A DNA stretch of 64,000 nt from contig CAISEZ010000090.1 of assembly GCA_903884535.1 (NCBI GenBank), positions 1,953-65,952 of the forward strand, given 5' to 3'. The translations under genes and the position numbers were made by a program. Origin of the DNA: an uncultured Verrucomicrobia subdivision 3 bacterium. Lineage in GTDB: Bacteria > Verrucomicrobiota > Verrucomicrobiia > Limisphaerales > UBA11358. The notes under the pieces were generated by a model that saw nothing but the letters and a program-made list of their open reading frames with translations, searched no databases and was not told where the DNA came from. Below are positions 23,801 to 44,056 of this stretch, in pieces; the first letter of the stretch is position 1; every line of letters begins with the position of its first letter.

Positions 23801-25424
23801 AGTCGCCAAAAATATCGCCCCAGAATGCCGCGCGTCCGCCGTAGGCTTGATGAATGCCGCCGTTGTCGTTGTATAATGTTTGCAGGCGAAACGCCGTGCC
23901 GCTCACCGGATCAAATTTGTTGACGACCGGACTCAAGGCACCGCTGCCCGCGCCGTCCTCGAACTCGCGCGTTAGATCGGCGTCCCACCAGACCGTTTCC
24001 GGTGCCCACAGGTTGTTCGCGTAAATCTGATTGCCCTTGCAATCATAAATGCCGGGTTGCGTGGAATACATTTCGTAGCCCTTGCGGTTCGGGTCCATCG
24101 CCAGCGCGACGCCGCGGCCGACGTCCACGACGTTCGGCGCATACCATTTCTTGATGATCTTGCCGGAGCCGGAATCGTAAAGCATCGTGGCGAGCAGCGT
24201 CGAATTGAGCTGCTGGATGGAATACGTTTCCAGACCGGGCCGGTCGGGATCCATGTCGGAAATGTGATAGCGATCGCCGTGACCGAGTTCCGTGTCAAAA
24301 AGCGGCTGGCCATCCGCGCCGCTGTTCGCTGAACCAACCTCAATGATGTCGTCAATCCCGTCGTGGTTCACGTCGGCAAAACGGATTTGATGACCCCAGG
24401 CGAAATTGGAATTGGCCGGCTGCGTCCAGAACCAGCGGCGCGTCAACTGGCCGTTGCGATAATCAAACGCCATGCTCTCGCGCTGAAACGCCTTGCTGAC
24501 ATTGCGGTTTTCGCCTTCGATAAACAGGCTCGGATGCACGCCGTCGCAATAAATGACGCCGAAATGACAGTTCAGCGGGCCGTCTGCCGGCCACATATTC
24601 GTCAGCGTTGTGCGGGCCAGTTCCTTGCCAGTCAGTCCGTCGAGAATTGAAATGTATTGCGTCGTGTCATCCGGCCCGGTGATGGTCGAGCCGTCGGGCA
24701 GAATCACGCCGCGCGCCGTGCGCACTGCGACTTGGGCGCGGCCGCTGCCGTCGAAGTCATACATTGTCACATTGTCCTTGTCGCCGATGCTGATGGCCGA
24801 CGCGCCCGGCTCGATGTTGTATTGGTTCGTGCTGTTGTAACCCATGTCCATCTGCCAGAGAAAAGTTCCGTCGCGTTTGTAAGCCTGCAAATACTCGTTT
24901 GTCGCCACGGTCGTTGACATGCGGTCCACCACGAAATCATATTCGCCATCGCCGTCCACGTCGCCGACCCAGCAGAACTTCACGTCGTAAGGTGCGGCCG
25001 CACCGCCGGTGACGTGCAGCGGCACGGCAAAATACTGGCGCACCGGCGGATTGGCCGCGAGTCCCCACGGCGCGCTCAACGCCTGCGTGACGCCGATGAA
25101 CACCGGCTGGATGAACCACGCGTTGGAGACGGTGAAATCCGCCGTCGTGTCGAGAAAATCCGTCGTGTTGGTGACGAGGCTGGCGTTGATTTGCACCGGC
25201 GCGGCACCGCTGGCCGAACGCAGCACGTTGTAGCCGGCACCGTCCGGATCAGTGGCGAGTTGCCGCCAACTAACGTAAGCCTGGGTTGAACTTTTGTGCA
25301 GCACGATGACGCCGCGTCCAAGCTTTTCCATCTGCCGCTGCGCGTGGACAGGCAGCGTGAACGCGGCAATCAAAATGATTGCCGCTAAAACACGGAACGC
25401 GCTGGCCGGTAAAAATAGTTTCAT
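20871..25424 (-). CDS. Secreted rhamnogalacturonan lyase (PL11/YesW-like beta-propeller) fused to a long array of PATR repeats and a C-terminal beta-sandwich
   Basis: 1517 aa with a signal peptide. Calcium/FG-GAP-like motifs VGDVDGDGEYDFVVDR and DVNHDGIDDIIEV. Many repeats of G-T-L-x-L-x-x-x-N-x-Y-(T/S)-G-x-T. Confidence 0.8.
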   Translation of the reverse strand: MKLFLPASAFRVLAAIILIAAFTLPVHAQRQMEKLGRGVIVLHKSSTQAYVSWRQLATDPDGAGYNVLRSASGAAPVQINASLVTNTTDFLDTTADFTVSNAWFIQPVFIGVTQALSAPWGLAANPPVRQYFAVPLHVTGGAAAPYDVKFCWVGDVDGDGEYDFVVDRMSTTVATNEYLQAYKRDGTFLWQMDMGYNSTNQYNIEPGASAISIGDKDNVTMYDFDGSGRAQVAVRTARGVILPDGSTITGPDDTTQYISILDGLTGKELARTTLTNMWPADGPLNCHFGVIYCDGVHPSLFIEGENRNVSKAFQRESMAFDYRNGQLTRRWFWTQPANSNFAWGHQIRFADVNHDGIDDIIEVGSANSGADGQPLFDTELGHGDRYHISDMDPDRPGLETYSIQQLNSTLLATMLYDSGSGKIIKKWYAPNVVDVGRGVALAMDPNRKGYEMYSTQPGIYDCKGNQIYANNLWAPETVWWDADLTREFEDGAGSGALSPVVNKFDPVSGTAFRLQTLYNDNGGIHQAYGGRAAFWGDIFGDWREELVLVANDYSEIRIYSTTISATNKIYCLMQNPQYRDQCTAKGYYQSSYPDYYLGPGMQPPAIPPVSNAKLTWRGNAGTNWDAGSTANWFTNNLWISNNTAVAFNPGDTVLFDISGSNNAVNLIGSLQPGTVTVHSPKDYSFNGGSLDGAMPFTKAGAGKLIFNNTNSYSGRTLICESPFLVNGALANSPVTVRGGIWLDGRLGGSGVVGSPVSCEPGGGISPGQGTNSPGTLTIANSLTLNNALNDFDLSDDVTGVTKTNDLLIVTGTLSLLGTNTLTIHKLNSTLPPGIYPLINYGALSGSLNNFTVAGLDGTPLALTNPPGQIALVVKSVRATASLVWNGGQNGNAWDLVTTSNFLNGAAQDFFVPQDNVVFTDAGGANSNVNLSATLLAASVTVNAGSNYFFTGSGGISGGTGLTKTNAGTLVINNDNYYTGRTLVGGGVLEVNDLSVANSPGPLGSAPSASPTNLVIFGGATLRINSTQAYTDRGTTLQSGTNIFDVPTYGALVNFSGLVTGAGALQKIGQGTLILGTSNSFSGGVIAKAGVVQLATEAGNTYGVGTGTVTLDGGILKMLDDSSTYSTMAYNIFVPTNSGGELDCDSRIDCYGTLTGGGTLKMCIPFVRTTLYGNWSAFTGKINVLPGNAGDPRTGGTGTNGDFRISNSFGYGNCAIYLTNWMYAYHTTANTTVAVGELSGGPNSVLSAGAWQVGAKNTDATFAGRITGNSITKVGTGAWTLTGSNNYTGTTTVNAGTLFINGDNHSATAGVTINSAGTLGGKGIVGGATTVNGKLSPGPNFATLSFSNGLTLAVASTTLIEISKTPRTNDAFVVSGSLNLNGALVVTNLAGTPALGDSFKLFNAAAPAGNFSSVTLPPLVTGLAWNKTALASSGIITVVSNTPPTIGKTILRSGTFVLSGSNGVPGNIYYIVGTTNLALPLANWTRLATNVFDAGGNFGWTNTVGTSSSLNFFSLLVP

Positions 25425-25467
25425 GGACGGTGGGGACGCTTAAAAATACACCCAAACTGGCGGGAAC

Positions 25468-26646
25468 CTATTCACCAGAATTGGCGATGCGCAAAACCAA
25501 CCACCAGGCCGCCACCAGCATCACCCCGGCAGAAATCGCGCGAATGCCAAAACGCTGAAACCACGGGTGTTTTTGCAGCACAAACAAAATCGGCAATAAA
25601 ATTGCGGCGACGATGAGCTGGCCGGTTTCCACGCCAAGATTGAAAGCGACCAGCGGTTTGGCGATTGCCGCGCCGGTCCCGCCGAGACCGCTGGCGCGCA
25701 GCGCGCCGGCAAAACCAAAACCGTGGATCAGCCCGAAGCCGCCGGTGAGCGCGTAGCGATGCCACGGTTTTTCCTCGCGCCGGAAATTTTCCGCCGCCAC
25801 AAACAGAATCGAGGCCGCGATGGCCGGTTCCACCACGCGCGCAGAAATTGTGACGAGGTTCAGCGCCGCCAGCGCCAGCGTGAGCGAGTGCGCCAGGGTG
25901 AAACCGGTGATGACCAGCAGCATCGGCTTGAGCCGCTGGCAGCCCAGCAGCAGCGCCGTCAGAAACAGCAGGTGGTCAAACGCGCCCAAGTTCAAAATGT
26001 GGCCAACGCCGAGTTTCCAAAATTCCCCGAAGCTTGGCCGGGTTTTCTCCGTCGCCACGGGCAGCGGCGGTTTTTCCGCCGGCGGATTTACCGTGGAAAC
26101 CGGAGCGGCGGCGGAACCCGGCGGAAATAATTTTTCTGGCAGCGCAAAATCGGCGCTGTCCTTGGCGGGCGAGAGAATCGCGCTGGCAAAAATGTTGCCG
26201 TTTTCGTCGGTCAGCACGAGCGGCGCGTTGCGCGGCGCGGGCAGGGCGGGGAGAAACTGCGATTGCAGCCGCAGGGTTTTTGCCGGTGCGAGCGCGTATT
26301 CAAAATGAAATTGAAATTCCAGCCCGTCCGTGATGACGTCCGCCTCGCGCGGCTGGATGCTGTTGCCATCGGCGGACGCCGTGAAAAAATTCGTGACCAT
26401 CGCCGGGTTCAGCGCGAACGGATGGCCGGACGGCAACTGGCCGGGGCTGATCTGCGCGGCGCGCAGAAAATTTTCGCCAAGCGCGGTGCCCACGGTGACC
26501 ATGATTTCGGCGGAGTCCGCGTGGACGATGACGCGCGCCGAGCAGTCGAACGGCGCGTGGGCGAGGACGGTCTGCGCCAGAAAAAGCGCGCCGGCCAGAA
26601 GGGCGTAGAAAAGCAGCGCGCGTGGCTTCATGGTTTGAGGCCGCAA
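25468..26646 (-). CDS. hupE: HupE/UreJ family membrane protein with an N-terminal periplasmic extension
   Basis: 392 aa. Signal peptide, then a C-terminal half with GxxHIL...G.DHLLFL and five or six TM segments. Confidence 0.7.
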   Translation of the reverse strand: MRPQTMKPRALLFYALLAGALFLAQTVLAHAPFDCSARVIVHADSAEIMVTVGTALGENFLRAAQISPGQLPSGHPFALNPAMVTNFFTASADGNSIQPREADVITDGLEFQFHFEYALAPAKTLRLQSQFLPALPAPRNAPLVLTDENGNIFASAILSPAKDSADFALPEKLFPPGSAAAPVSTVNPPAEKPPLPVATEKTRPSFGEFWKLGVGHILNLGAFDHLLFLTALLLGCQRLKPMLLVITGFTLAHSLTLALAALNLVTISARVVEPAIAASILFVAAENFRREEKPWHRYALTGGFGLIHGFGFAGALRASGLGGTGAAIAKPLVAFNLGVETGQLIVAAILLPILFVLQKHPWFQRFGIRAISAGVMLVAAWWLVLRIANSGE

Positions 26647-29927: not shown

Positions 29928-30717
29928 ACTTTCGCCGGTCGAAAAACTTCTCGGTTCCATTCCTAACCGCCTGCAGCTTGCCGGCGGTTGGATTGACCAG
30001 CCGTTCGTTTCGCAGCACAACCCGAAGCCGCCCGGTTCAATGGTCGTAGTGCAAATCGAACCGGATTTCCGGCCGATGGATCGTTCCGGCATTGCCAGCG
30101 GCACGCGCGCGGTGGCGATGAAGCTCTGGAAAGGAAAATTACCGAACCGGCCGCCGGCGGAACTGGCGCGCGAACTTTACGAAGTCGAAAACAAAGGCAA
30201 GGCCGAGCCGAGCGGTTCGCAGGACATGATCGGGCTGGTTTATCCGGGCGTGAACCGGCTGGATTACGATTTCAAAATTCACGGCGGCATTTTTCCGGCA
30301 CACATCGAATCACTGAACTCGGCGAAGCACGCGCGCTGGCTGGAAAAAGTGCTGCACCTGCTGCCGATTGAACCGCGTCCGGACGGCTACAGTCCGCTTG
30401 GCATCAAAAATCTGGCGCCAAAATGGGTGGCTCGCCTCGGCCAGAGCGGAACTGATTGCTTTGCAGTGATCAAGAAAATGGACGTGAATGCGCTCGGGGC
30501 ATCGTTCAATGAAACCATGTTGTGCTGGGAAAAACTGTTGCCGCACGTCGTAGCACATCCGCTGATCAAGTTGGATTTGAAGGCGATTTTGAGAGTTTAT
30601 CAAAAGAATTTCCCGGGCGCGATGTTCTCCGGCTGCGGTGGCGGGTATCTGCTCGTCGCGTCGAAGGAAAAAGTCCCGGGCGCGTTGCAAGTCACCGTGC
30701 GCACCACCGCCCCATGA
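29917..30717 (+). CDS. GHMP-family sugar kinase-like protein (fucokinase/HddA subfamily pattern) with an atypical motif II
   Basis: 266 aa. RLQLAGGWIDQP (compare R-x-x-x-x-GGGTD), SGIASGTRAVA in place of GSGLGSSSA, GSQDMIG (compare GxQDQ), GCGGGYLLV (compare GAGGGGF). GTG start overlaps the ankyrin gene by 11 nt. Confidence 0.55.
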   Translation: MKNKLSPVEKLLGSIPNRLQLAGGWIDQPFVSQHNPKPPGSMVVVQIEPDFRPMDRSGIASGTRAVAMKLWKGKLPNRPPAELARELYEVENKGKAEPSGSQDMIGLVYPGVNRLDYDFKIHGGIFPAHIESLNSAKHARWLEKVLHLLPIEPRPDGYSPLGIKNLAPKWVARLGQSGTDCFAVIKKMDVNALGASFNETMLCWEKLLPHVVAHPLIKLDLKAILRVYQKNFPGAMFSGCGGGYLLVASKEKVPGALQVTVRTTAP

Positions 30718-31532
30718 GTTTGCCCAAACAAGTCGTCGTCAGTGGCGGTTTTGATGATCTCAAGTCGGGCGACCTGCGATTTCTCGAAGAGGCGGCGAAG
30801 CTCGGCGAATTGACCGTGCTGCTCTGGCCGGACCAAACTATTCAAAAACTCACCGGCAAGCCGCCTAAGTTTCCGCTCGCCGAGCGAAAATATTTTCTCA
30901 ATGCGGTGCGTTATGTCGGCCACGTCGCGGAGGCGGAGGCGTCCGCTGATTTCAATTCTTTACCGAAAATTTTTCACGCGCATATTTGGGCGGACGGCGA
31001 AACCACGGCCAACGAAGCGCGCCAAAAATTCGCCGCCGAAAACAAAATCGTCCGCCGCGTTTTTTCAACGAATGAGCTGAATAGTTTTCCCGAACCGCCG
31101 ACGATGCTGTCCGCGCCGGACCGGAAAAAAGTTGTCGTGACCGGAAGTTTCGACTGGTTTCACTCCGGTCATGTCCGCTTTCTCGAAGAAGTGAGCACCC
31201 TTGGCGATTTGTTTGTGGTCGTCGGCCACGATGCGAACATTCGTTTGCTGAAAGGGCAGGGGCATCCGCTTTTGCCGGAAGCTGAGCGCCGCTACGTCGT
31301 CGGCTCGATCAAGTTTGTAAAACAGGTGTTGGTTTCCAGCGGCGACGGCTGGCTGGACGCGGATCCGGAAATAAAAAAAATCCAGCCGGACATTTACGCG
31401 GTGAACGAGGACGGCGACAAGGGCGGCAAACGCGAGTATTGCGAAAAGCTCGGCATTGAATACCTCGTGCTGAAACGCACGCCCGCGCCGGGTTTGCCGG
31501 CGCGTTCCAGCACCAACTTGCGTGGTTTTTAG
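30714..31532 (+). CDS. Tandem cytidylyltransferase-like (HxGH nucleotidyltransferase) protein: degenerate N-terminal domain plus an intact C-terminal domain
   Basis: 272 aa. Domain 1 is VVVSGGFDDLKSGDLRFLEEA, where the HxGH histidines are replaced. Domain 2 is VVVTGSFDWFHSGHVRFLEEV, with HxGH intact. ATGA overlap with the upstream gene. Confidence 0.75.
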   Translation: MSLPKQVVVSGGFDDLKSGDLRFLEEAAKLGELTVLLWPDQTIQKLTGKPPKFPLAERKYFLNAVRYVGHVAEAEASADFNSLPKIFHAHIWADGETTANEARQKFAAENKIVRRVFSTNELNSFPEPPTMLSAPDRKKVVVTGSFDWFHSGHVRFLEEVSTLGDLFVVVGHDANIRLLKGQGHPLLPEAERRYVVGSIKFVKQVLVSSGDGWLDADPEIKKIQPDIYAVNEDGDKGGKREYCEKLGIEYLVLKRTPAPGLPARSSTNLRGF

Positions 31533-31744
31533 GGGAAGGCTCCGGGGAAATGGCCAAAGACCTGTCAAACACCTAAAAATCATTAAAATTGCGGGACGGG
31601 ACACTGAAACGCTCTTGGGACGATTTTATTGGAAATTTTAGCTTGAAACAAATTGTCAAGTACGCGAAATTTGCGGAAGAAATATTCCATTCAGGCCAAA
31701 GTGGTAGGAATAGATTTAATTTGTGGTGCTGAACCAGTTGCTAA

Positions 31745-32428
31745 ATGAAAACAATTAAGCTGACAATTTTTGCCGCCGCCATGCTGGTGGCCGCACTGGC
31801 CCAGGGGCAAGCCACGGTTGGTTTCACCAACACCGTCAACGCGGTGGTGCCGGACGCCAATCCCACCGGTCTGACCGTTTCTCAAAGCTTGTCGGCTGTG
31901 CCGGGGACAATCACCAACGTTACGGTTACGTTGGACATCACCGGTGGTTTCAATGGCGATTTGTATGCCTACCTGGTGGATCCGAACGGGAACATCTCCA
32001 TTTTGTTGAACCGTGTCGGCGTGACGGCGGTTGGCGGTAATAACTATTTTGGCTACGGCAACACGGGTTTCGATGTTGTATTGAGCGAGGCGGGTTCATC
32101 CAATATTCACAACTATCAGTCAGGAAGTTACTCGGTGAACGGCGGCGGACAGCTTACGGGAACTTGGCTGCCAGATGGCCGAAACATTCTTCCAAATTCA
32201 GCTCCCAGCGTGTTTGACTCGGCCTCGACTTCAGCGGATTTGAGCGTTTTCAACAACATGGTTCCCAATGGCACTTGGACGTTGTTCATAGCCGACTTGT
32301 CCGCCGGTGGAACTTCTACTTTGGTCAGCTGGGGCTTGACGGTCGTCACCGTGCCGGAACCGCAGACGTGGGCGCTGGTTGCGGGCGGACTCGGCACGCT
32401 GCTGGCCTTGCGCCGCCGGTCGCGCTAA
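31745..32428 (+). CDS. PEP-CTERM-anchored protein with a proprotein-convertase P-domain-like module
   Basis: 227 aa with a signal peptide. I(T/P)D...ITNVTVTLDITGGFNGDLYAYLVDPNGNISILLNRVG is the P-domain pattern. C-terminal VPEPQTWALVAGGLGTLLALRRRSR. Confidence 0.8.
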   Translation: MKTIKLTIFAAAMLVAALAQGQATVGFTNTVNAVVPDANPTGLTVSQSLSAVPGTITNVTVTLDITGGFNGDLYAYLVDPNGNISILLNRVGVTAVGGNNYFGYGNTGFDVVLSEAGSSNIHNYQSGSYSVNGGGQLTGTWLPDGRNILPNSAPSVFDSASTSADLSVFNNMVPNGTWTLFIADLSAGGTSTLVSWGLTVVTVPEPQTWALVAGGLGTLLALRRRSR

Positions 32429-32466
32429 ATCAGTTCGTCGGTTTTCTGCGGTGCTTTCCTGATTTG

Positions 32467-32484
32467 GCTGGCGGAGTCGCCAGC
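32467..32484. terminator. Hairpin between convergent genes (possible bidirectional terminator, weak U-tract)
   Basis: GCTGGCG-GAGT-CGCCAGC, a perfect 7-bp stem. Confidence 0.35.
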
Positions 32485-33360
32485 TTAATTCACAAATTTC
32501 TCCTCTTTCAGCCAAAATAAACATTCATTCGCCCACGGATGCGGATTGGCGAACGGCGGTTTGTCTTTCAGTCCCATGCCGTGACCGCCTTTTTGATAAA
32601 TGTGCAACGCGAAAGGGACCTGATTTTTCCGCAGCGCTTCGGCAAAGAGCATCGTATTTTCCATCGGCACGGTTTTGTCCTCAAACGTTGTCCATAGAAA
32701 ACACGGCGGGGTATTGGTCGTCACCTGCAATTCATTGGAAAGCAGGTTGACCAATTCAGGTGACGGATTTTTGCCGAGCAGATTATCGTGCGAACCTTTG
32801 TGCGCGAATTCGCCCATTGAAATTACCGCATAGCAAAGGATGCCCAAATCTGGGCGCGAACTTTGCCGCTCAATCACATCGATCGCGTTCGTATCACCCG
32901 CATCAAAATGCGTCATCAGCGTTGCCGCCAGATGGCCGCCCGCCGAGGAACCCATGATGCCGACGCGCTGCGTATCAATGTTCCATGCGGCCGCGTGGGC
33001 GCGCACCAGGCGCACGGCGCGGGCGGCGTCATTGAGCATCGCCGGATGATGATAGCCGCTGGAACCCAGCCGGTATTTCAGGACAAAACAGGTGACGCCC
33101 TGCTGGTTCAGCCAGAGCGCGTAATCGTTGCCTTCGTGCGGTGCAAGGTGTGCGTAACCGCCGCCCGGACAAATCACCATGGCCGCACCGGTGGCGTTGG
33201 TCGCATCGGGAAAATACGGCGTGAGCGTGGGAATGTCGGTGGCGTTGGTGCCGAGCGCGCCAGGCGCGCCGTCGGGCCAGAGGGGAATGGCGGATTTCAT
33301 TTCAGCGCGGGATACAATGAGCGACAACAATAAAATTGCCGAGACAAAAATCGGTTTCAT
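32485..33360 (-). CDS. Secreted alpha/beta hydrolase (esterase/lipase, BD-FAE-like)
   Basis: Signal peptide MKPIFVSAILLLSLIVSRA. Oxyanion GGGY and nucleophile elbow GSSAGG. The ATG at 33360 is preferred over the track start at 33444. Confidence 0.75.
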   Translation of the reverse strand: MKPIFVSAILLLSLIVSRAEMKSAIPLWPDGAPGALGTNATDIPTLTPYFPDATNATGAAMVICPGGGYAHLAPHEGNDYALWLNQQGVTCFVLKYRLGSSGYHHPAMLNDAARAVRLVRAHAAAWNIDTQRVGIMGSSAGGHLAATLMTHFDAGDTNAIDVIERQSSRPDLGILCYAVISMGEFAHKGSHDNLLGKNPSPELVNLLSNELQVTTNTPPCFLWTTFEDKTVPMENTMLFAEALRKNQVPFALHIYQKGGHGMGLKDKPPFANPHPWANECLFWLKEEKFVN

Positions 33361-33457
33361 GACTTGGGTGGACGAATGCTCGCGGAATTCTAAACTCAAT
33401 TCAACCCCAACTTCGCCGCAGGTTTGACAGCGACCGATCCTCATCAGTTTTCAATCC

Positions 33458-33612
33458 GTGTTTGAACTTGTGTCAGATTACGCGTCCGCAGGCGATTGAG
33501 AAGTTAATCGCAGGTATTTTGGCCGGCGCGAAAAATCAGACGTTGCGCGGCGTCACCGGTTCAGGCAAGTCAGTCAGCGTCGCCAACGTCATCAAAAACA
33601 CCGGTAAGCCAC
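33458..33612 (+). pseudogene. uvrB: Frameshifted relic of the uvrB 5' end (codons 1 to ~56)
   Basis: GTGTTTGAACTTGTGTCAGATTACGCG... aligns with 37926-38095. It encodes FELVSDYA, then after a net 14-nt deletion PQAIEKLIAGILAGAKNQTLRGVTGSGKSVSVANVIKNTGKP. Similarity ends abruptly at 33612. Confidence 0.8.
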
Positions 33613-33656
33613 ATACACCGTTGTTTGAGAAGCCCATCAACCCGTGGCGTTACTGG

Positions 33657-34679
33657 CTAAAACGTGAAACTCAATCCGGTTGTAGCATAGATGGCCTGGC
33701 TGAAATCTAACTCGACAGCGGAGCCGCCGGCGGACTGATTGACGGTATCGGTCATGGGTTGGTATTGCACACCGGCAAAAACACGCCAGGACGGCGACAG
33801 CGCATAACTGATTGCGCCGCGAACGTAGGGACCAAAAATCGCGTCGGTGCCGCCGCCGCTCCCCGAGCGGGTTTCGGAGATGCCACTGACAGTCAGCGTT
33901 TCCGAGTAGCGGAATTGGTTGTCCACCACGGCCACAGCCAGACCCGTTGCCAGTTCCAAATGCACTTTCTTGCCCGCCGGCAGTGTGAACACCGGGCCGA
34001 GGCGGAAACAATAGATGTCTGCATCGGTGCTGCGTGAACCGGATATCGAACCCGATGCGAGAGAAGTGGCACGAGTCGGGGTTGCCCCGAGCAGGGCACC
34101 GGGACCAGAGAAGGTTCCGCCGTATGGCGCAAAGGGCGGAATAACCGCGCCGAGCGGGAACGAGTCGGTGGTAACCGTCGCGCTCACCGGATGGGAGGAA
34201 TTATCCGTAACCTCCAGACGATTGTAGCCGAAAGCAAGTTCAACGGAGAAGTATCCCGGGCCGCAGTCAACCAGCCGCCGCAGGTAGGAAAGTTCAAAGC
34301 CGTAGTTCGGGTCATCACTTGCCGCCGGCGAGGACTCTTTATTCACCGACAGATTATGCATGTTGATGGTCGAGGCGGTTGCATTGTATTGCGCGTTGTT
34401 CTGGTAGCCCCAGTTCCATGTTTGATTACCGGAGTTTCCGCTCGAGTCCACGTGCACATAGCCATCCGGGTAATTGCGATCCACCAGCGGCCCCGCAGCC
34501 GGCGAGGTGGCCGGTGGAGACCCCTGCAAACGGAGAAACTTTGCCGTGACGTTAAAACCGAAACTCGGACCAAGCCGGAACTCGTTCATCGGAGTCTGGT
34601 CTGCTTCCGCGGCTGGCAAATTTGCGCCCGCAGTGAGAGCGATGATGGAACTGATGCTTTTCAGAAACAAAGTTTTCAT
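33657..34679 (-). CDS. Putative outer-membrane beta-barrel protein
   Basis: 340 aa with a signal peptide. Alternating-hydrophobic strand pattern, Gly/Ser/Thr-rich loops, and C-terminal ...TTGLSFTF with a terminal Phe. Confidence 0.55.
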   Translation of the reverse strand: MKTLFLKSISSIIALTAGANLPAAEADQTPMNEFRLGPSFGFNVTAKFLRLQGSPPATSPAAGPLVDRNYPDGYVHVDSSGNSGNQTWNWGYQNNAQYNATASTINMHNLSVNKESSPAASDDPNYGFELSYLRRLVDCGPGYFSVELAFGYNRLEVTDNSSHPVSATVTTDSFPLGAVIPPFAPYGGTFSGPGALLGATPTRATSLASGSISGSRSTDADIYCFRLGPVFTLPAGKKVHLELATGLAVAVVDNQFRYSETLTVSGISETRSGSGGGTDAIFGPYVRGAISYALSPSWRVFAGVQYQPMTDTVNQSAGGSAVELDFSQAIYATTGLSFTF

Positions 34680-34706
34680 AGTTGTGTGCGGTTTAAGGGT
34701 TCAGGT

Positions 34707-37523
34707 TTATGGCAGTTCAACTACGCGGTAGTAGCGGTTGCCTGGGCCAGGCGGCGACACGGTCTTGGGCGGGCCGGCATCAATCCATTGTGTCCGGTTG
34801 GCCGCGGCTTTGATGGTCGGTGCGGCCGAAACCCAATTTATTAAATCTCCACTGTATTCGATTGCATAACTGCGACTGGCGGTGGAGTTGAACTCAACGA
34901 GGAAACTTCCACCCGGAAGCATTTGCGCCCGTGTGACCGCAATCCGAGTGCCGTTGTTCGTAGGTGGCGTCGCTGTGGTAGTGGATTCTAGGGTAACAGT
35001 GGGGGTGAACGTGGCGCGATTGGTGACATAATACTCGATGGTCAACGTGACGGAGCCGTTGGCGGGAATGGGGCCGTTGTATTGCACAAACGGGGTGCCG
35101 TTGTTCGTGCCTGTGGCGTTGTAGACCTGCACGCCCGCTGGCAGTGAAGTGATGAGCACTCGATACGGCGTGGTGTTTGGTGTGGCGCAGGTGTTGCCAA
35201 TCACGACACGCTGTTCGAGCAGCCCGGTCTGTGGATTGACGGTGGGCATGGATGTGGAGGTGATCGCCGTCTCGCACTCCACGGCGCCGGGCGGCCAGAT
35301 GCCTTCGGCCCACGGTCCCCAATCCGTGCCGTCGTTGGCGCGAACACGAATGTAATAAACGACCGGGCCCAAGTCCGGCCCGGTGTAGAGCGCGGATTGA
35401 TTGGTGCCGACGAACGGCGGCGGGTTCCACAAGTTGGTGCCGGTGGCGTCGGGGCCGCTCCAGACTTGGATTTCCGCTTGAGCTTGCGGCGCACCTTCCC
35501 TGTCAGCGTAGGTCCAGGTGATGGTGAACGAGTTCGTGTTCGTGCCGCCAGCCGCCACCGCGATCACGGGCACGACGGCGGGCGGAATATTCGTGGTCGA
35601 AGTGGTGAATGCGTATTCGGTCACGCGATCTCGCGGACAGTTCTGCCAGGAGATGTTGTTCTCGTCCGAATCTTGGACCTGCGCCAGAATACTCGCACCG
35701 GATCGGTAATCCCAAGCGTAGTTTAACGGCGCAGTAAACCCGTCGACCGTCATGGTCACGTAATCAATTCCTGCTGGTTCGTATTGATAATCTTGCCAGA
35801 CCTGGACGCGCAGTTCGCCATTGGGATCGGGGAGGAACAAGGAAAGATCGTATGTCTTCGTGGCTTCGGTGCCTGGATAGGTGAAGGAATCGCGCTGCAC
35901 CCAACTGCTGCCGTCCCAAGTATAGACCAGATAGCTACCGCCGCTGGGCAGATAATAACCGCGCGAGCGAAACACAAATTCGCGCGTTTTGCCCGTAGCC
36001 AGTGCTGGAACCGGAAACGAGATCGAGAATTTTTCGCCGCTGGAGATTTGAACCCGGTTGCCGTCCACGTTCGCCAGCGTGGCGAGGACGTTTTTCGAAC
36101 CAAACCAAGCCGCGCTCGGTTGCAATGTTGTAGCCGTGAACGCCGGCGCTGCCCCGGCATAAAGCGCCACGAAATCAATGGAGTGGTATTTGGTTGAGTG
36201 TGAAATCGAACGCAGGCGCACCTGCACCGCCTTGCCCGCCGTCAGATAGGGCTTCAAGTCGAACGCGTTGTAGGAATTTTCAAAGCGCGGCAGCAACCGT
36301 CCGCGCTCGATCCAGTTTCCGCCGCTGTCGCGGGTTTCGACCACCACGGCCGGAGGGCTGGTGAACGGAATCTCCGGGCCGGTGCCAATGATGAAGCCTT
36401 TCACCTTGAGCACCAGCACCGCCGCTTGCGAAAGGTCCACGATTCCGAAATCCAAACTGACCGTGTCGCCATGATACGCCGCATGCCCGACATCGTCGTT
36501 GGCAATAACCAACGGCAGGACATTTTCAGATTGGCCCGAAACCGCGGAGTTGGGTGCCCGCAAGCTGGCCGGCCGGTAACCAGTGAGGTTGCCCGCGCCG
36601 TCCGGTGCTACCGCCACATCCGCCGCGTGATCCACGGCTACGAGCGTCGCGTCGTCCGTGAAGGAGGTCTCGCTGTCCCGCTCCTGCACTTCGAGCCAAT
36701 AGCTTCCGTTCAGTGGCACCAGCGGTTTTTGCAGCCGGTAAGCATCGGTGTATTCAGCACTCGCTCCACGCGCAACGGAATAGATGTCATTGTCCGCCAT
36801 GAAGTCACTCCCATTCCACGGAGCCACCCACGGGCAGGAGGCGGACGAGGACGGGTCTTCCCACGCTTCCATGGTGAACATTTTGGCGGTGCCCGATTTC
36901 ACGTTCTTGGTAACGGCGATGTCATCCACATACACCCCCGACAGGCTGCCGCTGCCGCCGCAATAGAATGAAGGCGAAGAACTGAAGACCACCGCGCGAA
37001 AACGCAGGTAGAGCGGCATGCCGGAGTAGGTTGGATCCAGCGAAAACTCGTAATGCTTCCACGACGGGGCGTTGGCGCCATAGTGCTCCATGTTATTATA
37101 AAATTGAATCAGTGATTGCCATTCGGTGCGATTCGTGGAGACGAAGAATTCACCCCGGTCGCGCATACCATCCAGATCAACGTAGGCCCAGAAACGGACG
37201 CGCAGAATCTCGTTGCTGGAGATGGTGGGAAGCGAGATTGGCAGCGAAACAATGGACCCATCACACGTTCTTGGAATCGGCCCGTCCAGCACCGTGCCCC
37301 AGCACTTGGTTCCCGCGTGGGCGGCGTGCGGTCCCACCGAGCTGGGCGAAGGCGTGCCCCACGCCCAACCGGCGGTATTGTCCGTTTCCAATATTCCGTA
37401 ACTGCCATCGTCGGTTTCAAATCCCTGCGAGTAGATGATGACTTCCTGTGCTGGGGCAGTGAGTGACAGGATCGAGAAAACGGCTGCGATACCGCATCCG
37501 ACTATTAAACAATTGGTTTTCAT
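34707..37523 (-). CDS. Large secreted protein of unknown function (N-terminal MAM/jelly-roll-like module, FN3-like module, C-terminal beta-sandwich)
   Basis: 938 aa. Signal peptide MKTNCLIVGCGIAAVFSILSLTAPAQE. GWAWGTPS...HAGTKCWGT...GVYVDDIAV pattern. Ends with ...RYYRVVELP. Confidence 0.75.
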   Translation of the reverse strand: MKTNCLIVGCGIAAVFSILSLTAPAQEVIIYSQGFETDDGSYGILETDNTAGWAWGTPSPSSVGPHAAHAGTKCWGTVLDGPIPRTCDGSIVSLPISLPTISSNEILRVRFWAYVDLDGMRDRGEFFVSTNRTEWQSLIQFYNNMEHYGANAPSWKHYEFSLDPTYSGMPLYLRFRAVVFSSSPSFYCGGSGSLSGVYVDDIAVTKNVKSGTAKMFTMEAWEDPSSSASCPWVAPWNGSDFMADNDIYSVARGASAEYTDAYRLQKPLVPLNGSYWLEVQERDSETSFTDDATLVAVDHAADVAVAPDGAGNLTGYRPASLRAPNSAVSGQSENVLPLVIANDDVGHAAYHGDTVSLDFGIVDLSQAAVLVLKVKGFIIGTGPEIPFTSPPAVVVETRDSGGNWIERGRLLPRFENSYNAFDLKPYLTAGKAVQVRLRSISHSTKYHSIDFVALYAGAAPAFTATTLQPSAAWFGSKNVLATLANVDGNRVQISSGEKFSISFPVPALATGKTREFVFRSRGYYLPSGGSYLVYTWDGSSWVQRDSFTYPGTEATKTYDLSLFLPDPNGELRVQVWQDYQYEPAGIDYVTMTVDGFTAPLNYAWDYRSGASILAQVQDSDENNISWQNCPRDRVTEYAFTTSTTNIPPAVVPVIAVAAGGTNTNSFTITWTYADREGAPQAQAEIQVWSGPDATGTNLWNPPPFVGTNQSALYTGPDLGPVVYYIRVRANDGTDWGPWAEGIWPPGAVECETAITSTSMPTVNPQTGLLEQRVVIGNTCATPNTTPYRVLITSLPAGVQVYNATGTNNGTPFVQYNGPIPANGSVTLTIEYYVTNRATFTPTVTLESTTTATPPTNNGTRIAVTRAQMLPGGSFLVEFNSTASRSYAIEYSGDLINWVSAAPTIKAAANRTQWIDAGPPKTVSPPGPGNRYYRVVELP

Positions 37524-37776
37524 TATGAACTCCTCCTAATGCAAGTGTGGCTTTGTAAAAGTAAACCTGCTTGTATCAACTTAAACTCCTGCTGGCGTTT
37601 AAAGTCAACACATATTTTCATGTTTTTTATCATGGTTTAAACGGGAGGGTGAATCGTTTCCCAAAAAAACGAGCAGACCGTTTAATGCCCATGGGTGCGG
37701 CAGCCGGTTCCAACCGCCCGCAGATTTGCCTCAGCGAGTATTTTTGGAAGAGCTGTTCCGAGGCAGTTTCAAATTT

Positions 37777-37848
37777 GGTGGGGCGAGCGTCCGGCGAGCC
37801 GCTCAAACCCAAGACTCCCGACGGTTCGCGCGGACGCCCACCCCGCCG
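37777..37848. repeat. GC-rich palindromic element sharing the 'CGCTCAAAC' box with the elements at 39150 and 62065
   Basis: GGTGGGGCGAGCGTCCGGCGAGCCGCTCAAACC ... CGACGGTTCGCGCGGACGCCCACCCCGCC, an imperfect inverted repeat, 78 nt upstream of the uvrB ATG. Confidence 0.55.
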
Positions 37849-37887
37849 GCTTTTTGAAATTAGGCCACCACCTGTTCCGACGGTTCG

Positions 37888-37916
37888 TTGACACGCGGGG
37901 CTGACACTTCTAACTT
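37888..37916 (+). promoter_or_regulatory. Candidate sigma70-type promoter of uvrB (TTGACA-N17-TAACTT), implying a very short leader
   Basis: Hexamers read directly. The -10 element ends 9 nt before the ATG. A TTGACA box also precedes the relic copy (33424-33429). Confidence 0.3.
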
Positions 37917-37925
37917 TTCCTTTCG

Positions 37926-40070
37926 ATGTTTGAACTTGTTTCCGAATACGCGCCCGCCGGTGACCAGCCGCAGGCGATTGAAAAATTAACCGCCGGCATT
38001 TTGACCGGCGTGAAAAACCAGACGCTGCGTGGCGTCACCGGTTCCGGCAAGACGTTCACCGTCGCTAACGTCATCAAAAATACCGGCAAGCCCACGCTCG
38101 TCATTTCGCACAACAAAACCCTGGCCGCGCAACTTTACGCCGAGTTCAAAAGTTTTTTCCCAAAAAACGCCGTCGAATACTTCGTCAGCTATTTCGATTT
38201 TTACCAGCCCGAGGCCTACATTCCGCGCACCGACACGTTCATCGAAAAAGATTCCAGCATCAACGAGGAGATCGAGCGGCTGCGGCTCTCGACCATGAGT
38301 TCGCTCTTCTCGCGCCGCGATGTGATTGTCGTTGCGAGCGTCTCTTGCATTTACGGTATCGGCAGCAAGGAAGATTACGCGGTGATGGTTTTGCCCATCA
38401 CCGTCGGCGGCGCAATGTCGCGCGAGCAGTTGTTGTCGCGCCTGGTGGATCTGCAATACACGCGCAACGACATCGCGTTCGAGCGCGGCCAGTTTCGCGT
38501 GCGCGGCGACACGGTGGAAATCTGTCCCGCCGGCCGCGAGGACGCGCTGCGCGTGGAATTTTTCGGCGAGGACATCGAACGCCTCACGCGCTTCGAGCCG
38601 CTGACGGGAAATAAGATTGAATCGCTCGTCGCCGAAACCATTTTTCCGGCAAAGCAATTCGTGACCACCGGCGACAAATTAATAAATGCCATCCTCGGCA
38701 TTCGCGAGGAATTGCGCGAACGCATCGTTTTTTTTGAGAAGCACGGCAAGCTGCTGGAAGCCCAGCGCATCAAGATGCGCACGGAATACGATCTGGAAAT
38801 GATGGAACAAATGGGCTTCTGTTCCGGCATCGAAAATTATTCGCGCCACATCGCCGCGCGCAAGCCGGGTTCGCAGCCGAACACGCTGTTTGATTTTTTC
38901 CCGAAAGATTATCTGCTCGTCGTGGACGAATCGCACGTCACCGTTTCGCAGATCGGCGGCATGTATGAAGGCGACAAATCGCGCAAAACGGTTTTGGTGG
39001 ATCACGGCTTCCGGCTGCCGAGCGCGCTGGACAACCGGCCGATGAATTTTCTGGAATTTCAGTCCATGCAAAACCAGACGATTTACGTCAGCGCCACGCC
39101 CTCGCTGCGCGAAATCGAATGGTCGCGGCAAAGTGCCGTCCAAAATTCTGGTGGCAGCGGACGTGAGTCCGCTCAAACCTTAAAATCGGAAATTGAAAAT
39201 CGGAAGTCGGAAATGAGTCAGAGCCGACTCACGTCGGCTGCTACCGAACTGCCCGGCGTCGTGGATCTCGTCGTGCGGCCGACCGGCTTGATTGATCCGA
39301 AAGTCACCATCAAGCCGCTGAAAGGTCAGATTGACGATTTGATGGAAGAGGTCCGCAAGCGCGGCGACAAAAAGGAACGCACACTGGTCACGACCTTGAC
39401 CAAGCGCACGGCGGAAGAACTCACGGATTATCTGCGCGACATTGGCATCCGCGTTCAGTATTTGCACAGCGACATTGACGCGATTGAGCGCGTGGAAATC
39501 CTGCGCTCGCTGCGCAAGGGCGAGTTTGACGTGCTCGTCGGCATCAATCTGTTGCGCGAAGGATTGGATTTGCCAGAAGTTTCGCTCGTCGCAATTTTGG
39601 ACGCGGACAAGGAAGGTTTTCTGCGCAGCGAAACGAGTTTGATCCAGACCGCTGGTCGCGCGGCGCGGCATTTGAACGGCGAGGTGATTCTTTACGCCGA
39701 CGTGATGACGGACAGCATCAAAAAATTTCTCGCCATCACGGAATATCGGCGCAAGCGGCAGATCGCTTATAATCTTGAACACCACATCACGCCGCGCAGC
39801 GTCATTCGCGCGGTCGAGGAAAGTCTGGCGGTTTATCGGACGACGCGTGAAGAAGCTGACGCCGTTTTGCACGACGCCAAAATGGACGTGGACGTGACCG
39901 AGACCATCCGCGAACTCGAAGGTGAAATGCTCGTGGCCGCCGAGGATTTGAAATTTGAAAAAGCCGCGCTGCTCCGCGACCAGATCAAAGAACTCAAACA
40001 CATGATTGACGGCACGAAATCCGAAGCGAAGCCGGTGAGCTATCGGAAATCAAAACGAGCGAGGAAATAA
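37926..40070 (+). CDS. uvrB: Excinuclease ABC subunit B
   Basis: 714 aa. Motifs GVTGSGKTFT (Walker A), DESH, RPTGLIDP and GRAARH, plus a C-terminal UVR domain (FEKAALLRDQIKELK). Contains an in-frame repeat-element insertion. Confidence 0.97.
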   Translation: MFELVSEYAPAGDQPQAIEKLTAGILTGVKNQTLRGVTGSGKTFTVANVIKNTGKPTLVISHNKTLAAQLYAEFKSFFPKNAVEYFVSYFDFYQPEAYIPRTDTFIEKDSSINEEIERLRLSTMSSLFSRRDVIVVASVSCIYGIGSKEDYAVMVLPITVGGAMSREQLLSRLVDLQYTRNDIAFERGQFRVRGDTVEICPAGREDALRVEFFGEDIERLTRFEPLTGNKIESLVAETIFPAKQFVTTGDKLINAILGIREELRERIVFFEKHGKLLEAQRIKMRTEYDLEMMEQMGFCSGIENYSRHIAARKPGSQPNTLFDFFPKDYLLVVDESHVTVSQIGGMYEGDKSRKTVLVDHGFRLPSALDNRPMNFLEFQSMQNQTIYVSATPSLREIEWSRQSAVQNSGGSGRESAQTLKSEIENRKSEMSQSRLTSAATELPGVVDLVVRPTGLIDPKVTIKPLKGQIDDLMEEVRKRGDKKERTLVTTLTKRTAEELTDYLRDIGIRVQYLHSDIDAIERVEILRSLRKGEFDVLVGINLLREGLDLPEVSLVAILDADKEGFLRSETSLIQTAGRAARHLNGEVILYADVMTDSIKKFLAITEYRRKRQIAYNLEHHITPRSVIRAVEESLAVYRTTREEADAVLHDAKMDVDVTETIRELEGEMLVAAEDLKFEKAALLRDQIKELKHMIDGTKSEAKPVSYRKSKRARK
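39150..39245. repeat. 96-nt palindromic (MITE/REP-like) element inserted in frame within uvrB, with a central 7-nt-periodic array
   Basis: Left arm GGTGGCAGCGGACGTGAGTCCGCTCAAAC. Centre AAATCGG AAATTGA AAATCGG AAGTCGG AAATGAG. Right arm GAGCCGACTCACGTCGGCTGCTACC, the near reverse complement of the left arm. Confidence 0.7.
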
Positions 40071-40100
40071 TTCGAGTGATTATTTGCGGAAATTTACAAG

Positions 40101-40334
40101 CTATTCTGTTTTCTCGTCACTCTCACCTGTGACTTTGTGAGTGCGAGATTTTCTAATTTTGGAAATGAACAAATAGAGAGTAATCCCAGATGCCACCAAC
40201 ACTGGCCCAAGAAGCGCGCCTAATATTGCTCCTCCGAAAAACTTCCCGGCAAACAGGCCAATGACAACGCTTCCGATAACAGCTCCAATTATTGCCGTTA
40301 CAGAAAGGAAAATCAGCAATTCAAAAAATGTCAT
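40101..40334 (-). CDS. Small membrane protein (77 aa from the ATG; two or three TM, Gly-rich)
   Basis: MTFFELLIFLSVTAIIGAVIGSVVIGLFAGKFFGGAILGALLG... AT-richer than the flanks. No confident family. Confidence 0.45.
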   Translation of the reverse strand: MTFFELLIFLSVTAIIGAVIGSVVIGLFAGKFFGGAILGALLGPVLVASGITLYLFISKIRKSRTHKVTGESDEKTE

Positions 40335-40882
40335 GACATTGATACGCAACAATTACTTCGCCGGATTCGTGCGATAAAATTTCCAGCGCCGTCGGCGCGA
40401 CATCTTTGTAGAACCAAACCCAAACCGAATCAAGGTTCTTGCGAACGGTCACCATTTGCCGACGGCCACCAGCGGGCGGCATATTCGGTGGCCCGTGAAG
40501 CGGATTTTGGCGGAGCCGGCTGAGTGAAAGTTAGCTGAAACGAAAAGGTTGTGGGACACGGTGGGCGGTGGAATCGTTTTTCAGCGAACTGAAATCGGCG
40601 ATGGGTTCGACCCTGCCGGGTGCCTTGGTGGTCCGGTTCGGGTGCTGGTTCACCGCGAAGTTGCCTTAGAAATTTTTGCTGAAGCGCCGTCCTAATGATT
40701 TCAAAAACGTGAATGCCTATAGTCCTAAGCACCGTTAAGGAGTCCAATAAAAACAGTCATTCCGTCCGATTCCGCCCATGGTCAAAAATGGCGCAAACTA
40801 TTTTGTTCTGGAATATCACGCAAGCGGGCAGCGATAAATTTCCGGAAAATTATTTTAATTCACGCCCCAGCGCCCGTCGCGT

Positions 40883-41953
40883 TCAAATCTTCACCTTGAA
40901 CGCTTCGTCCTTTTTCAGCGACTGCACGAACGCCGCCATCAACTGCGGAATCAACTCCAGATCTTTCAAACTCACCACCTCGACCGGCGAGTGCATGTAA
41001 CGGTTCGGCAGACTGATCAGCGCGCTGGCGATGCCGCCGCGCGTCCAGAAAATCACGTCCGTGTCCGTGCCGCTCGTCGCCGACATCGCCTCGTGCTGCA
41101 ACGGGATTTTTTTCTTCGCCGCCACTTCCTCCAGCCGCGCGACGACGTCGGGATGATTGCAGCCGCCGTGCGTGAGCGCCGGGCCGGCGCCGACCTTGAT
41201 GTCGCCGTGCTGCGTCTTGCTGACGGTCGGATAATCCGTCGCGTGCGTCACGTCCACCACCAGCGCGATGTCCGGCTTGAGCGAATACGCGATTTGCCGT
41301 GCGCCGAGCAGGCCGACTTCTTCCTGCACATTCGAGACGGCGCAAATCTCTGCATTCAACTTCACCTTGGATTCCTTCAGCAGCCGCAGCGCTTCCGCCA
41401 CGGCGAACGTGCCGATCCGGTTGTCGAACGCCCGCGCCACCGCGAGGTCGCCGCGCAAAATGTCGAACTCATCCGCCAGCGTGATCGGGTCGCCGACGCG
41501 GACGAGCTTCTCCGCCGCCTTGCGGCTGTCCACGCCGATGTCAATGAACAAGTCGTGGATTTTCGGCGGTTTGGGTTCGCCTTCCAGCTTGGTCAAATGC
41601 GGCGCGACATTGCCGACCACGCCCTTGACCGCGCCGCCGCGCGTGTGGATGACCACGCGCTGCGCCTTGGTGATGGCCGCGTCAATGCCGCCCATTTTGC
41701 GGACGTAAATAAAACCGTTGTCATCAATATAATTCACCGCCATCGCGATTTCGTCGGCGTGCGCGGCGAGCATGATGCGCGGCGCAGCGCCTTTGTTCAG
41801 CACCGCCACGCAATTGCCGTAGGCGTCGGAAAACGTTTCGTCGGCGAACTGGCCGGCGTAATCCAGCCAGACGCGCTGGCCGCGGGTTTCGTGGCCGGTG
41901 GGACTCGGTGTGTTCACCAAGGTTTTAAGAAAATTCAGGGAGGCATCGCGCAT
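40883..41953 (-). CDS. M42 family metallopeptidase (glutamyl aminopeptidase/FrvX-like)
   Basis: 356 aa. Motifs SPTGHE, MLAAHADEIA, DDNGFI....GGID and DNRIG. Confidence 0.85.
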   Translation of the reverse strand: MRDASLNFLKTLVNTPSPTGHETRGQRVWLDYAGQFADETFSDAYGNCVAVLNKGAAPRIMLAAHADEIAMAVNYIDDNGFIYVRKMGGIDAAITKAQRVVIHTRGGAVKGVVGNVAPHLTKLEGEPKPPKIHDLFIDIGVDSRKAAEKLVRVGDPITLADEFDILRGDLAVARAFDNRIGTFAVAEALRLLKESKVKLNAEICAVSNVQEEVGLLGARQIAYSLKPDIALVVDVTHATDYPTVSKTQHGDIKVGAGPALTHGGCNHPDVVARLEEVAAKKKIPLQHEAMSATSGTDTDVIFWTRGGIASALISLPNRYMHSPVEVVSLKDLELIPQLMAAFVQSLKKDEAFKVKI

Positions 41954-42017
41954 GACGGCAGGCTAGTCGGCGCCAATTTAAACGGAAAGGCAAATGTGCG
42001 CCCGCCACTTTGCGGAA

Positions 42018-42046
42018 TTGACATGGCCGCGCGGCATCCCTAATTT
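42018..42046 (+). promoter_or_regulatory. Candidate sigma70-type promoter for purA (TTGACA-N17-TAATTT)
   Basis: Hexamers and the 17-nt spacer counted directly. Confidence 0.35.
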
Positions 42047-42051
42047 CTTAA

Positions 42052-43428
<1,377 letters not shown>

Positions 43429-43435
43429 TGATTTT

Positions 43436-44056
43436 ATGACGCTCTCAGATTACGCAAGTTGTGCTTCAATATTGAGCCTTCCGTTATCTGTAGTGCTTTG
43501 GCTTTTTACACGGGAAACGGCTGCGAAATTTTGGAAAAATTGGTTTGGAAGGATTTTTTTTGTAGGATTTATTCTCGGACTGGTTGCTGTATGGCACATG
43601 GGATGGTTAAGTTGGTTGACTAAACCGGTTGTCTGGCCAGTGTGGGCTTTAATCTTGCTTGGAGTTGGAGGTTTAGTTTTGCCTCTTCTTTACTGGGGCT
43701 TGATAAAATTATTTGGTAAACAATCAATTATTTCACAGTTGAATTGGCGTAATTATGTTAACGATGAGATTTTTGGGGTGAACTGGCACTGGAATTATTT
43801 GGGAGATAAATTGAACGATGATTTATCCGCATTCTGTCCAGACCATAAATGTAAATGTCGGTTGAGGTCTGAACCAAACAGAAATGCTCCTTTTAATCCA
43901 AACAGGTATGAATCTCCAATTTCTCTAGTTTGTCCCCGATGTGGATTTCAAAAGGATTTTGATTCTGATTTTGAATCTATCAAGCGAAATGTATTCATCG
44001 AAATCGAAAGACGACTTAACACCAAGGAATTTCTAAAACGTTCCGAAAACAAATGA
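43436..44056 (+). CDS. AT-rich hypothetical protein: N-terminal ~110-aa polytopic membrane region plus C-terminal Cys4 zinc-ribbon-like domain
   Basis: 206 aa. The CPDHKC...(31 aa)...CPRCG pair. Composition is strikingly AT-richer than purA and uppS. Lies 7 nt after the purA stop, and its stop overlaps the uppS ATG (ATGA). Confidence 0.55.
   Translation: MTLSDYASCASILSLPLSVVLWLFTRETAAKFWKNWFGRIFFVGFILGLVAVWHMGWLSWLTKPVVWPVWALILLGVGGLVLPLLYWGLIKLFGKQSIISQLNWRNYVNDEIFGVNWHWNYLGDKLNDDLSAFCPDHKCKCRLRSEPNRNAPFNPNRYESPISLVCPRCGFQKDFDSDFESIKRNVFIEIERRLNTKEFLKRSENK

Follow-up and report, generated by a model that had tools for sequence, protein, structure and literature searches.

Examination of a 64,000-nucleotide (nt) stretch of DNA from an uncultured Verrucomicrobia subdivision 3 bacterium (hereafter the window, to which all coordinates refer) revealed a decayed, frameshifted copy of the beginning of the uvrB gene, located upstream of the intact uvrB and separated from it by two genes, p938 and p340, that are both encoded on the minus strand. 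This relic is probably the displaced native start of uvrB, stranded when DNA from a sister lineage recombined into the locus without the involvement of an integrase. The entire region, from the relic through the two cargo genes to uvrB, is present with 99.97% identity in contigs (L001-L003) from three separate ENA metagenome assemblies, so the arrangement is not an assembly artefact. The features of the locus are listed in Table 1.

A frameshifted copy of the uvrB start

Window positions 33458-33612 are a frameshifted copy of uvrB nt 1-170 (37926-38095), as had been proposed from alignment by eye in an initial, sequence-only reading of this DNA. A blastn comparison of the two stretches yields an ungapped block with 107 identical positions out of 125 (33486-33610 versus 37968-38092, E=2e-34) and a second block with 23/26 identities (33460-33485 versus 37927-37952), and a repeat search finds the same direct pair (D5, with a spacing of 4482, and D13, with a spacing of 4468). 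The relic and the intact copy are direct repeats with 86% identity, which corresponds to a divergence of about 1 in 7 positions (14-16%) rather than the one in five estimated by eye. The net 14-nt deletion with a frameshift, also noticed by eye, is recovered in the MAFFT alignment, where the 15-nt CCCGCCGGTGACCAG of the intact copy is replaced by a single T in the relic; because of this loss, the relic frame that starts at the GTG codon stops after 13 codons. The abrupt end of the similarity at 33612 and 38095, respectively, is reproduced to within 1-3 nt. The longest exact run common to both copies is 14 nt (CCGCAGGCGATTGA) and lies in the interior of the repeat, away from the joint.

The downstream copy begins an intact gene with the full set of UvrB domains (Pfam ResIII, UvrB_inter, Helicase_C, UvrB and UVR). 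Its product shares 95-96% amino acid (aa) identity with the UvrB proteins of the related loci L173 and L177, and the ratio of non-synonymous to synonymous divergence (dN/dS) versus L173 is 0.05.

The empty site in related genomes

A scan of a genome collection with the UvrB sequence identified, as the nearest relatives, two metagenome-assembled genomes of Verrucomicrobia subdivision 3 with 79% and 72% identity, that is, at the family level, and no flanks common to the window and these two genomes were found. The relatives used for the analysis of synteny were obtained by a metagenome scan with the esterase encoded next to the relic as the query, which produced 80 orthologous loci with 77-95% aa identity. 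In 42 of the 80, uvrB is the divergent neighbor of the esterase gene, and neither p938 nor p340 is present in any of these 42 loci. In 14 of them, the esterase and uvrB are only 94-104 nt apart, which is the single-copy empty site that was sought in related esterase-uvrB neighborhoods. This group includes L085, L173 and L174, with UvrB 95% identical to that of the window, and the window spacer between the esterase and the relic (33361-33457) aligns over its full length with the 94-104-nt spacers of the empty-site loci.

To the left of the relic, synteny between the window and L173 extends for more than 14 kb. Positions 8183-10167 of L173 align unbroken to window 31633-33610, encompassing a PEP-CTERM gene, the esterase, the spacer and uvrB nt 1-167, and L173 10002-12125 aligns to window 37927-40071; hence, the first ~166 nt of the L173 uvrB map twice on the window. 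Window 33613-37925 has no counterpart in L173.

In other loci of this set (within L084-L163), the esterase-uvrB interval contains a GH43 gene (~1.1 kb), a CorA gene (~1.1-1.3 kb), or genes for a 399-aa membrane protein, a 223-aa secreted protein or a 1107-aa protein, or else a 6.8-kb insert that consists of two large open reading frames (ORFs; 765 and 860 aa), possibly a restriction-modification system, and a GH43-like gene. With conserved genes on both sides and such varied contents, the interval is a hotspot of gene turnover.

Two types of uvrB promoter

When the 110 nt upstream of uvrB were lined up across all loci, a conserved core promoter became apparent, with a TTGAC box ~30-35 nt before the start codon and a TA-rich -10 box, in distinct types that co-vary with the upstream neighbor gene. 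The core of the esterase type is invariant at 33/45 positions across lineages whose uvrB genes differ by 10-20%.

The upstream sequence of the relic is of this esterase type: positions -54 to -1 are identical to L173 at 47/54 sites, and the GTG start and Asp7 of the relic are the state of all esterase-type loci. The promoter of the intact uvrB matches L177/L178 at 51/54 sites over the same positions and L169 at 42/55 sites. L177/L178 encode the closest relative of the window UvrB (96% aa identity), and the ATG start and Glu7 of the working gene are common to L177/L178 and L086. The two window promoters are identical at only 29/58 positions. Thus, although the TTGACA boxes at 33424-33429 and 37888-37893 had been correctly recognized in the sequence-only reading, the ~35-40 nt upstream of both starts do not belong to the same repeat: given that the two sequences differ to this extent and each matches another type, their resemblance reflects two versions of a uvrB promoter and not duplicated DNA.

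The cargo genes and their arrangement elsewhere

The secreted protein p938 has 67 homologues, the closest of which (other than itself) show 70-81% identity. Neither p938 nor p340, a putative outer-membrane barrel, has a match in Pfam, NCBIfam, PDB (sequence search) or PHROG. In the loci L164-L172, p340 always follows p938. In two of these, L169 (p938 80% identical) and L171 (71%), uvrB is the divergent upstream neighbor of the pair (p340<-p938<- ->uvrB), and the whole p938-uvrB spacer, including the uvrB promoter, is homologous to that in the window (blastn of window 37872-38053 versus L169, E=2e-25). Thus, the p340-p938-spacer-uvrB block is a case of inherited synteny elsewhere. In L164-L168, L170 and L172, the pair is found in differing contexts.

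The 44 nt between the relic and p340 (33613-33656) show no similarity to the 3' flanks of p340 in nine other cassette loci, and no terminator or hairpin is detectable at the p340/relic joint (z-score 0.6). A comparison of the GC content, the GC content of third codon positions (GC3) and the skew of the insert with those of the flanks revealed no anomaly, with GC and GC3 similar to those of the neighbors; such unremarkable cargo composition is expected for a within-family donor. Neither Rfam nor tRNA scans, covering 33000-41000 and 30000-44000, returned a hit, and in the repeat search, the DNA between the two uvrB copies turned out to duplicate nothing upstream. The statement that no integrase or recombinase is visible held up in profile searches: none was found in p938 and p340 (Pfam, PHROG) or in the ten longest other ORFs of at least 106 aa (Pfam). 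No integrase, recombinase or transposase adjoins the segment, which is flanked by housekeeping genes.

Decay of the relic

The substitutions in the relic were polarized using the intact copy, L177 and L173. The differences between the relic and the intact copy appear synonymous-biased by eye; after polarizing, however, the changes unique to the relic (11-13 in ~153 aligned nt) are distributed over all codon positions, with 6 in the third, 5 in the first and 2 in the second. Functional lineages show 2-6 unique changes over the same stretch, mostly synonymous. In the Walker A region, the otherwise invariant GKTFT is replaced by GKSVS in the relic, and the relic promoter departs from 8 esterase-type loci at 6 of the 33 sites where these do not vary, the -10 region (TCTATTTT>TCAGTTTT) among them. 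The synonymous divergence (dS) of uvrB between the window and L177/L173 is 0.36-0.46, which together with ~7% relic-specific change suggests, as a rough estimate, that the insertion is younger than the split from L177/L173 although not recent.

A model of the insertion

The sequence-only reading had envisaged a segment that inserted at the 5' end of uvrB and supplied a surrogate promoter and start, with the native end left to decay. This interpretation is supported by the empty sites, the orthology of the relic side to those sites, the different promoter on the intact side and the p340-p938-spacer-uvrB synteny in other lineages. Under the model that we propose, the ancestor would have possessed the esterase gene, the 97-nt spacer with the uvrB promoter, and uvrB, as in the close relatives, and the donor would have been a sister lineage with p938-p340 directly upstream of uvrB. 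We infer that DNA passed from such a donor into the esterase-type locus, where it would have been incorporated by the general recombination machinery of the cell, without an integrase. The incoming piece would have been ~4.4 kb long (33613-38095 less a miniature inverted-repeat transposable element (MITE)-like sequence acquired later) and would have comprised the 3' flank of p340, p340, p938, the spacer with the donor promoter, and uvrB nt 1-170.

In the likeliest scenario, the fragment would have circularized and then integrated through one homologous crossover in uvrB, 3' of codon 7 and within the first 170 nt (Campbell-type integration). In a less typical variant, a linear fragment would have been attached through a homologous crossover in uvrB on one side and through an illegitimate joint at nt ~170 of the recipient gene on the other. 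The product of either route would be the native promoter with the truncated uvrB 1-170, then the cargo, and then the donor promoter and 5' end in frame with the rest of uvrB. Because uvrB would have remained functional, the insertion could survive, and the stranded native end and its promoter would have decayed afterwards.

Several observations weigh against this model. The 170 coding nt alone say almost nothing about which copy is foreign: their parsimony-informative sites divide 2:1:0, with the start codon and codon 7 as the two in support. Neither the sliding identity of uvrB to its relatives nor the dS of codons 1-57, set against the whole gene, displays a clear discontinuity at nt 170. 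The 5' end of the intact gene shows no greater divergence from L173 than its remainder does, so the donor would have to belong to a closely related sister lineage, L177 for instance. A maximum-chi-square test of uvrB against L085/L086 points to mosaicism near nt 600 (p=0.001, uncorrected), which may stem from recombination in the relatives. Furthermore, among the sequenced lineages, none combines a close uvrB (>90% nt identity) with a demonstrated p938 neighbor: the L177 contig ends 66 nt upstream of uvrB, and L169 and L171 are more distant. Finally, synteny with L173/L182 is also lacking downstream of uvrB, and the M42 peptidase and purA genes found there adjoin a tRNA gene and ilvD in their closest relatives. 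A larger or a second rearrangement may therefore have taken place. Other relatives with 90-96% identity differ in their uvrB 3' flanks as well, so the downstream break may be an independent event; look-ups of the relatives of both the M42 peptidase and UvrB likewise show that the right flank is variable. No relics of SGL, GH28, tRNA or ilvD genes were detected in 40050-40900.

A second scar at the uvrB start

In the locus L104 (positions 1000-2010), a spacer and promoter of the CorA type precede uvrB nt 1-35 (with 2 mismatches), after which come a 761-nt insert that encodes ParD and ParE and an intact uvrB. No promoter of its own is recognizable for the intact gene, which is probably co-transcribed with the ParD antitoxin/ParE toxin pair. 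This is an independent second scar at the uvrB start, and the different positions of the joints (nt 170 in the window and nt 35 in L104) argue for general recombination and against a site-specific system.

Alternative explanations

The alternative that survives best reverses the direction of transfer: the genome would be natively of the p938 type (Y-p340-p938-uvrB), and an esterase block ending in a truncated uvrB 1-170 would have been imported and joined illegitimately downstream of p340, in which case the relic was never functional here. We regard this scenario as unlikely. In its favor, the structure is symmetric as to direction, the closest UvrB relative (L177) has a p938-type promoter and the right flank is not syntenic with the esterase-type relatives. 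The dS values versus L173 just to the left of the relic (0.77 for orf266, 0.80 for CTP_transf and 0.82 for the PEP-CTERM gene) are also higher than that of uvrB (0.46), which is a weak argument in the same direction; the esterase itself, however, has a dS of 0.55, near that of uvrB, and since the synteny with L173 extends leftward for more than 14 kb with dS of 0.49-0.53 in the outer genes, a long replacement would be required. Moreover, the reverse transfer needs an illegitimate joint, and selection would not explain why the fragment stops within uvrB, an end point for which the Campbell-type route accounts.

A decayed or non-autonomous site-specific integrative element with the 5' end of uvrB as its target, carrying a replacement end, would keep the target gene whole and would be compatible with the direct repeats at both borders, the empty site in relatives, the second insertion in L104 and the many gene sets in the esterase-uvrB interval. 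We nevertheless consider it improbable. There is no integrase, recombinase or transposase in or beside the segment, and no identical core, the longest run shared by the copies being 14 nt; the duplicated lengths (170 versus 35 nt) are incompatible with a fixed site; the cargo, spacer and promoter are ordinary inherited synteny in L169/L171; and the GC and GC3 of the cargo are like those of the neighbors. A related conjecture, namely that the first ~35-170 nt of uvrB are a recurrent landing pad for a dedicated, trans-acting system of cassette insertion that regenerates the gene start, is a long shot. If true, it would make p938-p340 in the window, ParDE in L104 and the gene sets upstream of uvrB products of a single targeted system in these Verrucomicrobia rather than of general recombination.

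Local duplication of the uvrB promoter and 5' end in situ, with two genes arriving between the copies and one copy decaying, had been put forward as the alternative in the sequence-only reading, and the identity and direct orientation of the copies as well as the neutral appearance of the relic-unique changes would fit it. We hold it to be very improbable because the promoters differ in origin, with that of the relic matching L173 and that of the intact gene matching L177 and homologous to L169/L171; in a promoter core so strongly conserved, a change of ~50% in situ is not possible, and the DNA between the copies duplicates nothing upstream. Finally, that the relic is a functional small gene or a regulatory decoy, for example, the 82-aa TTG-start ORF at 33462-33710 (a Walker A peptide) or an antisense promoter into p340, is hardly credible: the ORF does exist and has a weak ResIII match (E=0.029), but it exists only through the frameshift, overruns p340 on the opposite strand, is present in no other genome and is not called as a gene in the metagenome annotations, and the Walker A neighborhood and the -10 region are mutated at otherwise invariant positions.

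Features of the locus and of the rest of the window

Table 1. Features of the uvrB relic locus, in window coordinates.
Feature	Position	Strand	Description	Evidence
Esterase gene	32485-33360	-	Secreted acetyl-esterase, 291 aa; left neighbor of uvrB conserved in relatives	Pfam BD-FAE / Abhydrolase_3
Ancestral esterase-uvrB spacer	33361-33457	.	97 nt; esterase-type uvrB promoter (TTGACA 33424-33429), decaying	Aligns with empty-site spacers
uvrB relic	33458-33612	+	Remnant of uvrB nt 1-170 with a GTG start; 14 nt lost (net) after 33485; Walker A region TFT>SVS	Alignments to intact copy and L173
Relic-p340 interval	33613-33656	.	44 nt from relic end to p340 stop codon; holds the novel joint	
p340	33657-34679	-	Second cargo gene, 340 aa; signal peptide, C-terminal Phe	Translation
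p938	34707-37523	-	First cargo gene, 938-aa secreted protein	Translation
p938-uvrB spacer	37524-37925	.	p938-type uvrB promoter (TTGACA 37888-37893); interrupted by the 108-nt MITE-like element	Homologous to L169/L171 spacers
MITE-like element	37764-37871		Palindromic, 108 nt, in the p938-uvrB spacer just upstream of the uvrB promoter; direct repeat CTGTTCCGA(G/C)G at 37753-37763 and 37872-37883	Read from sequence
Working uvrB 5' end	37926-38095	+	170 nt; ATG start, Glu7; intact repeat partner	Alignments
Intact uvrB	37926-40070	+	714 aa	Pfam domain set

The NCBIfam matches of the esterase (pectin/acetylxylan esterases) score below the family cut-offs. The MITE-like element is absent at the same point in L177/L178. 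Compared with L005, the working uvrB contains a 123-nt in-frame insertion (41 aa, ...SGGSGRESAQTLKSEIENRKSEMSQSRLTSAATELPG...; window 39127-39255), which is a palindrome resembling repetitive extragenic palindromic (REP) sequences (GTGGCAGCGGACGTGAGTCCGCTC...GAGCCGACTCACGTCGGCTGCTAC), and the same family is represented in an intergenic region at 62064-62130 (related copy 62051-62130). The UvrB proteins of the relatives vary in length between 673 and 788 aa, which suggests that this loop has accommodated insertions of this kind more than once.

To the right of uvrB, the window encodes an orphan 83-aa membrane protein, an M42 peptidase and purA. The 0.8 kb at 40071-40883 are mostly non-coding, and the orphan ORF (40101-40352) is found in no other locus. 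The synteny break lies at the stop codon of the M42 peptidase gene, where the closest relatives (L180/L181, 96% aa identity) have a tRNA gene and ilvD. The same region includes a conserved element of ~70-90 nt (40384-40475), ~310 nt downstream of uvrB, which is 89-98% identical, in the same orientation and downstream of uvrB, in 8 relatives (9 copies), far above the conservation of coding DNA. It contains a 5' hairpin (GCGCC/GGCGC) and a 3' hairpin with compensatory variants (GTTC..GAAC, GTCT..AGAC, GCTCC..GGAGC) and has no match in Rfam; it is a candidate small RNA or regulatory element.

The left flank differs from L173 at window 20871-26646, where two additional ORFs (1517 and 392 aa) are located between a gene for an FAD-binding oxidoreductase and a 299-aa gene, and the AraC regulator and alpha-L-fucosidase of L173 are absent; otherwise, this flank is syntenic. 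Farther away, three tandem copies of a 609-nt unit with 63-78% identity (1766-3118; repeat families D1, D2 and D4) presumably represent a repeated domain in a large gene. The stretches 5243-6027 and 8576-9876 are diverged direct repeats, 72-79% identical at a spacing of ~3.85 kb, with 35-nt units every 204 nt at 8576-9018, which suggests paralogous genes with internal repeats.

Implications

The locus is a natural example, in uncultured soil/peat Verrucomicrobia, of ordinary genes moving between sister lineages without mobile-element machinery. The highly conserved uvrB would serve as the homology handle, and the insertion would survive since the incoming DNA rebuilds the promoter and the start. 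Metagenome data suffice to recover the scar, the empty site and the donor-type arrangement alike. In annotation, the ORF of 82 aa that overlaps the relic should not be called a gene, and the promoter of the working uvrB is to be placed at 37888 rather than beside the esterase. The event is of a known kind, namely an integrase-free insertion with duplication of the homology segment and a decaying relic of the gene start, and involves no new mechanism; the instance itself is new and well documented.

Comparison with known systems

The closest parallel is the Campbell-type integration seen in insertion-duplication by suicide plasmids and with the re-circularized conjugative fragments of PMC3240628. 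In Escherichia coli crosses built to detect homology-facilitated illegitimate recombination (HFIR), 56 of the 60 recombinants were 109-950 bp duplications of the homologous segment that arose from a single crossover with a re-circularized molecule (PMC3240628). The duplication in the window, at ~170 bp, is within this range, and the insert lies between the direct duplicates. One copy is truncated at the fragment end, with the relic stopping at nt ~170 beside the cargo; the site is empty in relatives; the insert-side copy carries donor-derived upstream sequence; and the gene stays whole because the fragment brings a promoter and a 5' end, with general recombination and no integrase. The structure thus is a textbook single-crossover product, and together with the E. 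coli precedent this favors a circularized donor fragment of ~4.4 kb. Unlike those integrations, this would be a natural event, with chromosomal DNA of a sister lineage as the "vector" and no plasmid backbone; the copies are identical at 86% of positions, having diverged before or since; and the circular intermediate is one that we infer.

True HFIR is an insertion coupled with a deletion of recipient DNA, typically of similar size and with 3-10 bp of microhomology at the joint, and has been described in natural transformation of Acinetobacter, Streptococcus pneumoniae and Pseudomonas stutzeri (summarized in PMC3240628). The locus would share with it a conserved gene, uvrB, as a one-sided homology anchor for foreign genes and a novel non-homologous joint at the other end, but here the recipient uvrB nt 1-170 were kept and duplicated, not deleted.

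Phages and islands that integrate in gene ends and bring a replacement end, such as e14 or phage 21 in icd and the tRNA-targeting islands, are similar in that the insert-borne surrogate end keeps the target functional and a partial duplicate of the target remains at the far border. The window differs from them in having no integrase and no identical attachment (att) core, in its cargo of two ordinary envelope-protein genes, and in a duplicated length that varies between the two events. In core-gene-flanked hotspots, homologous recombination within the core genes on either side swaps one flexible islet for another, and the esterase-uvrB interval, with contents that vary across relatives, resembles them; the usual exchange is scarless, whereas here the joint inside uvrB left a relic.

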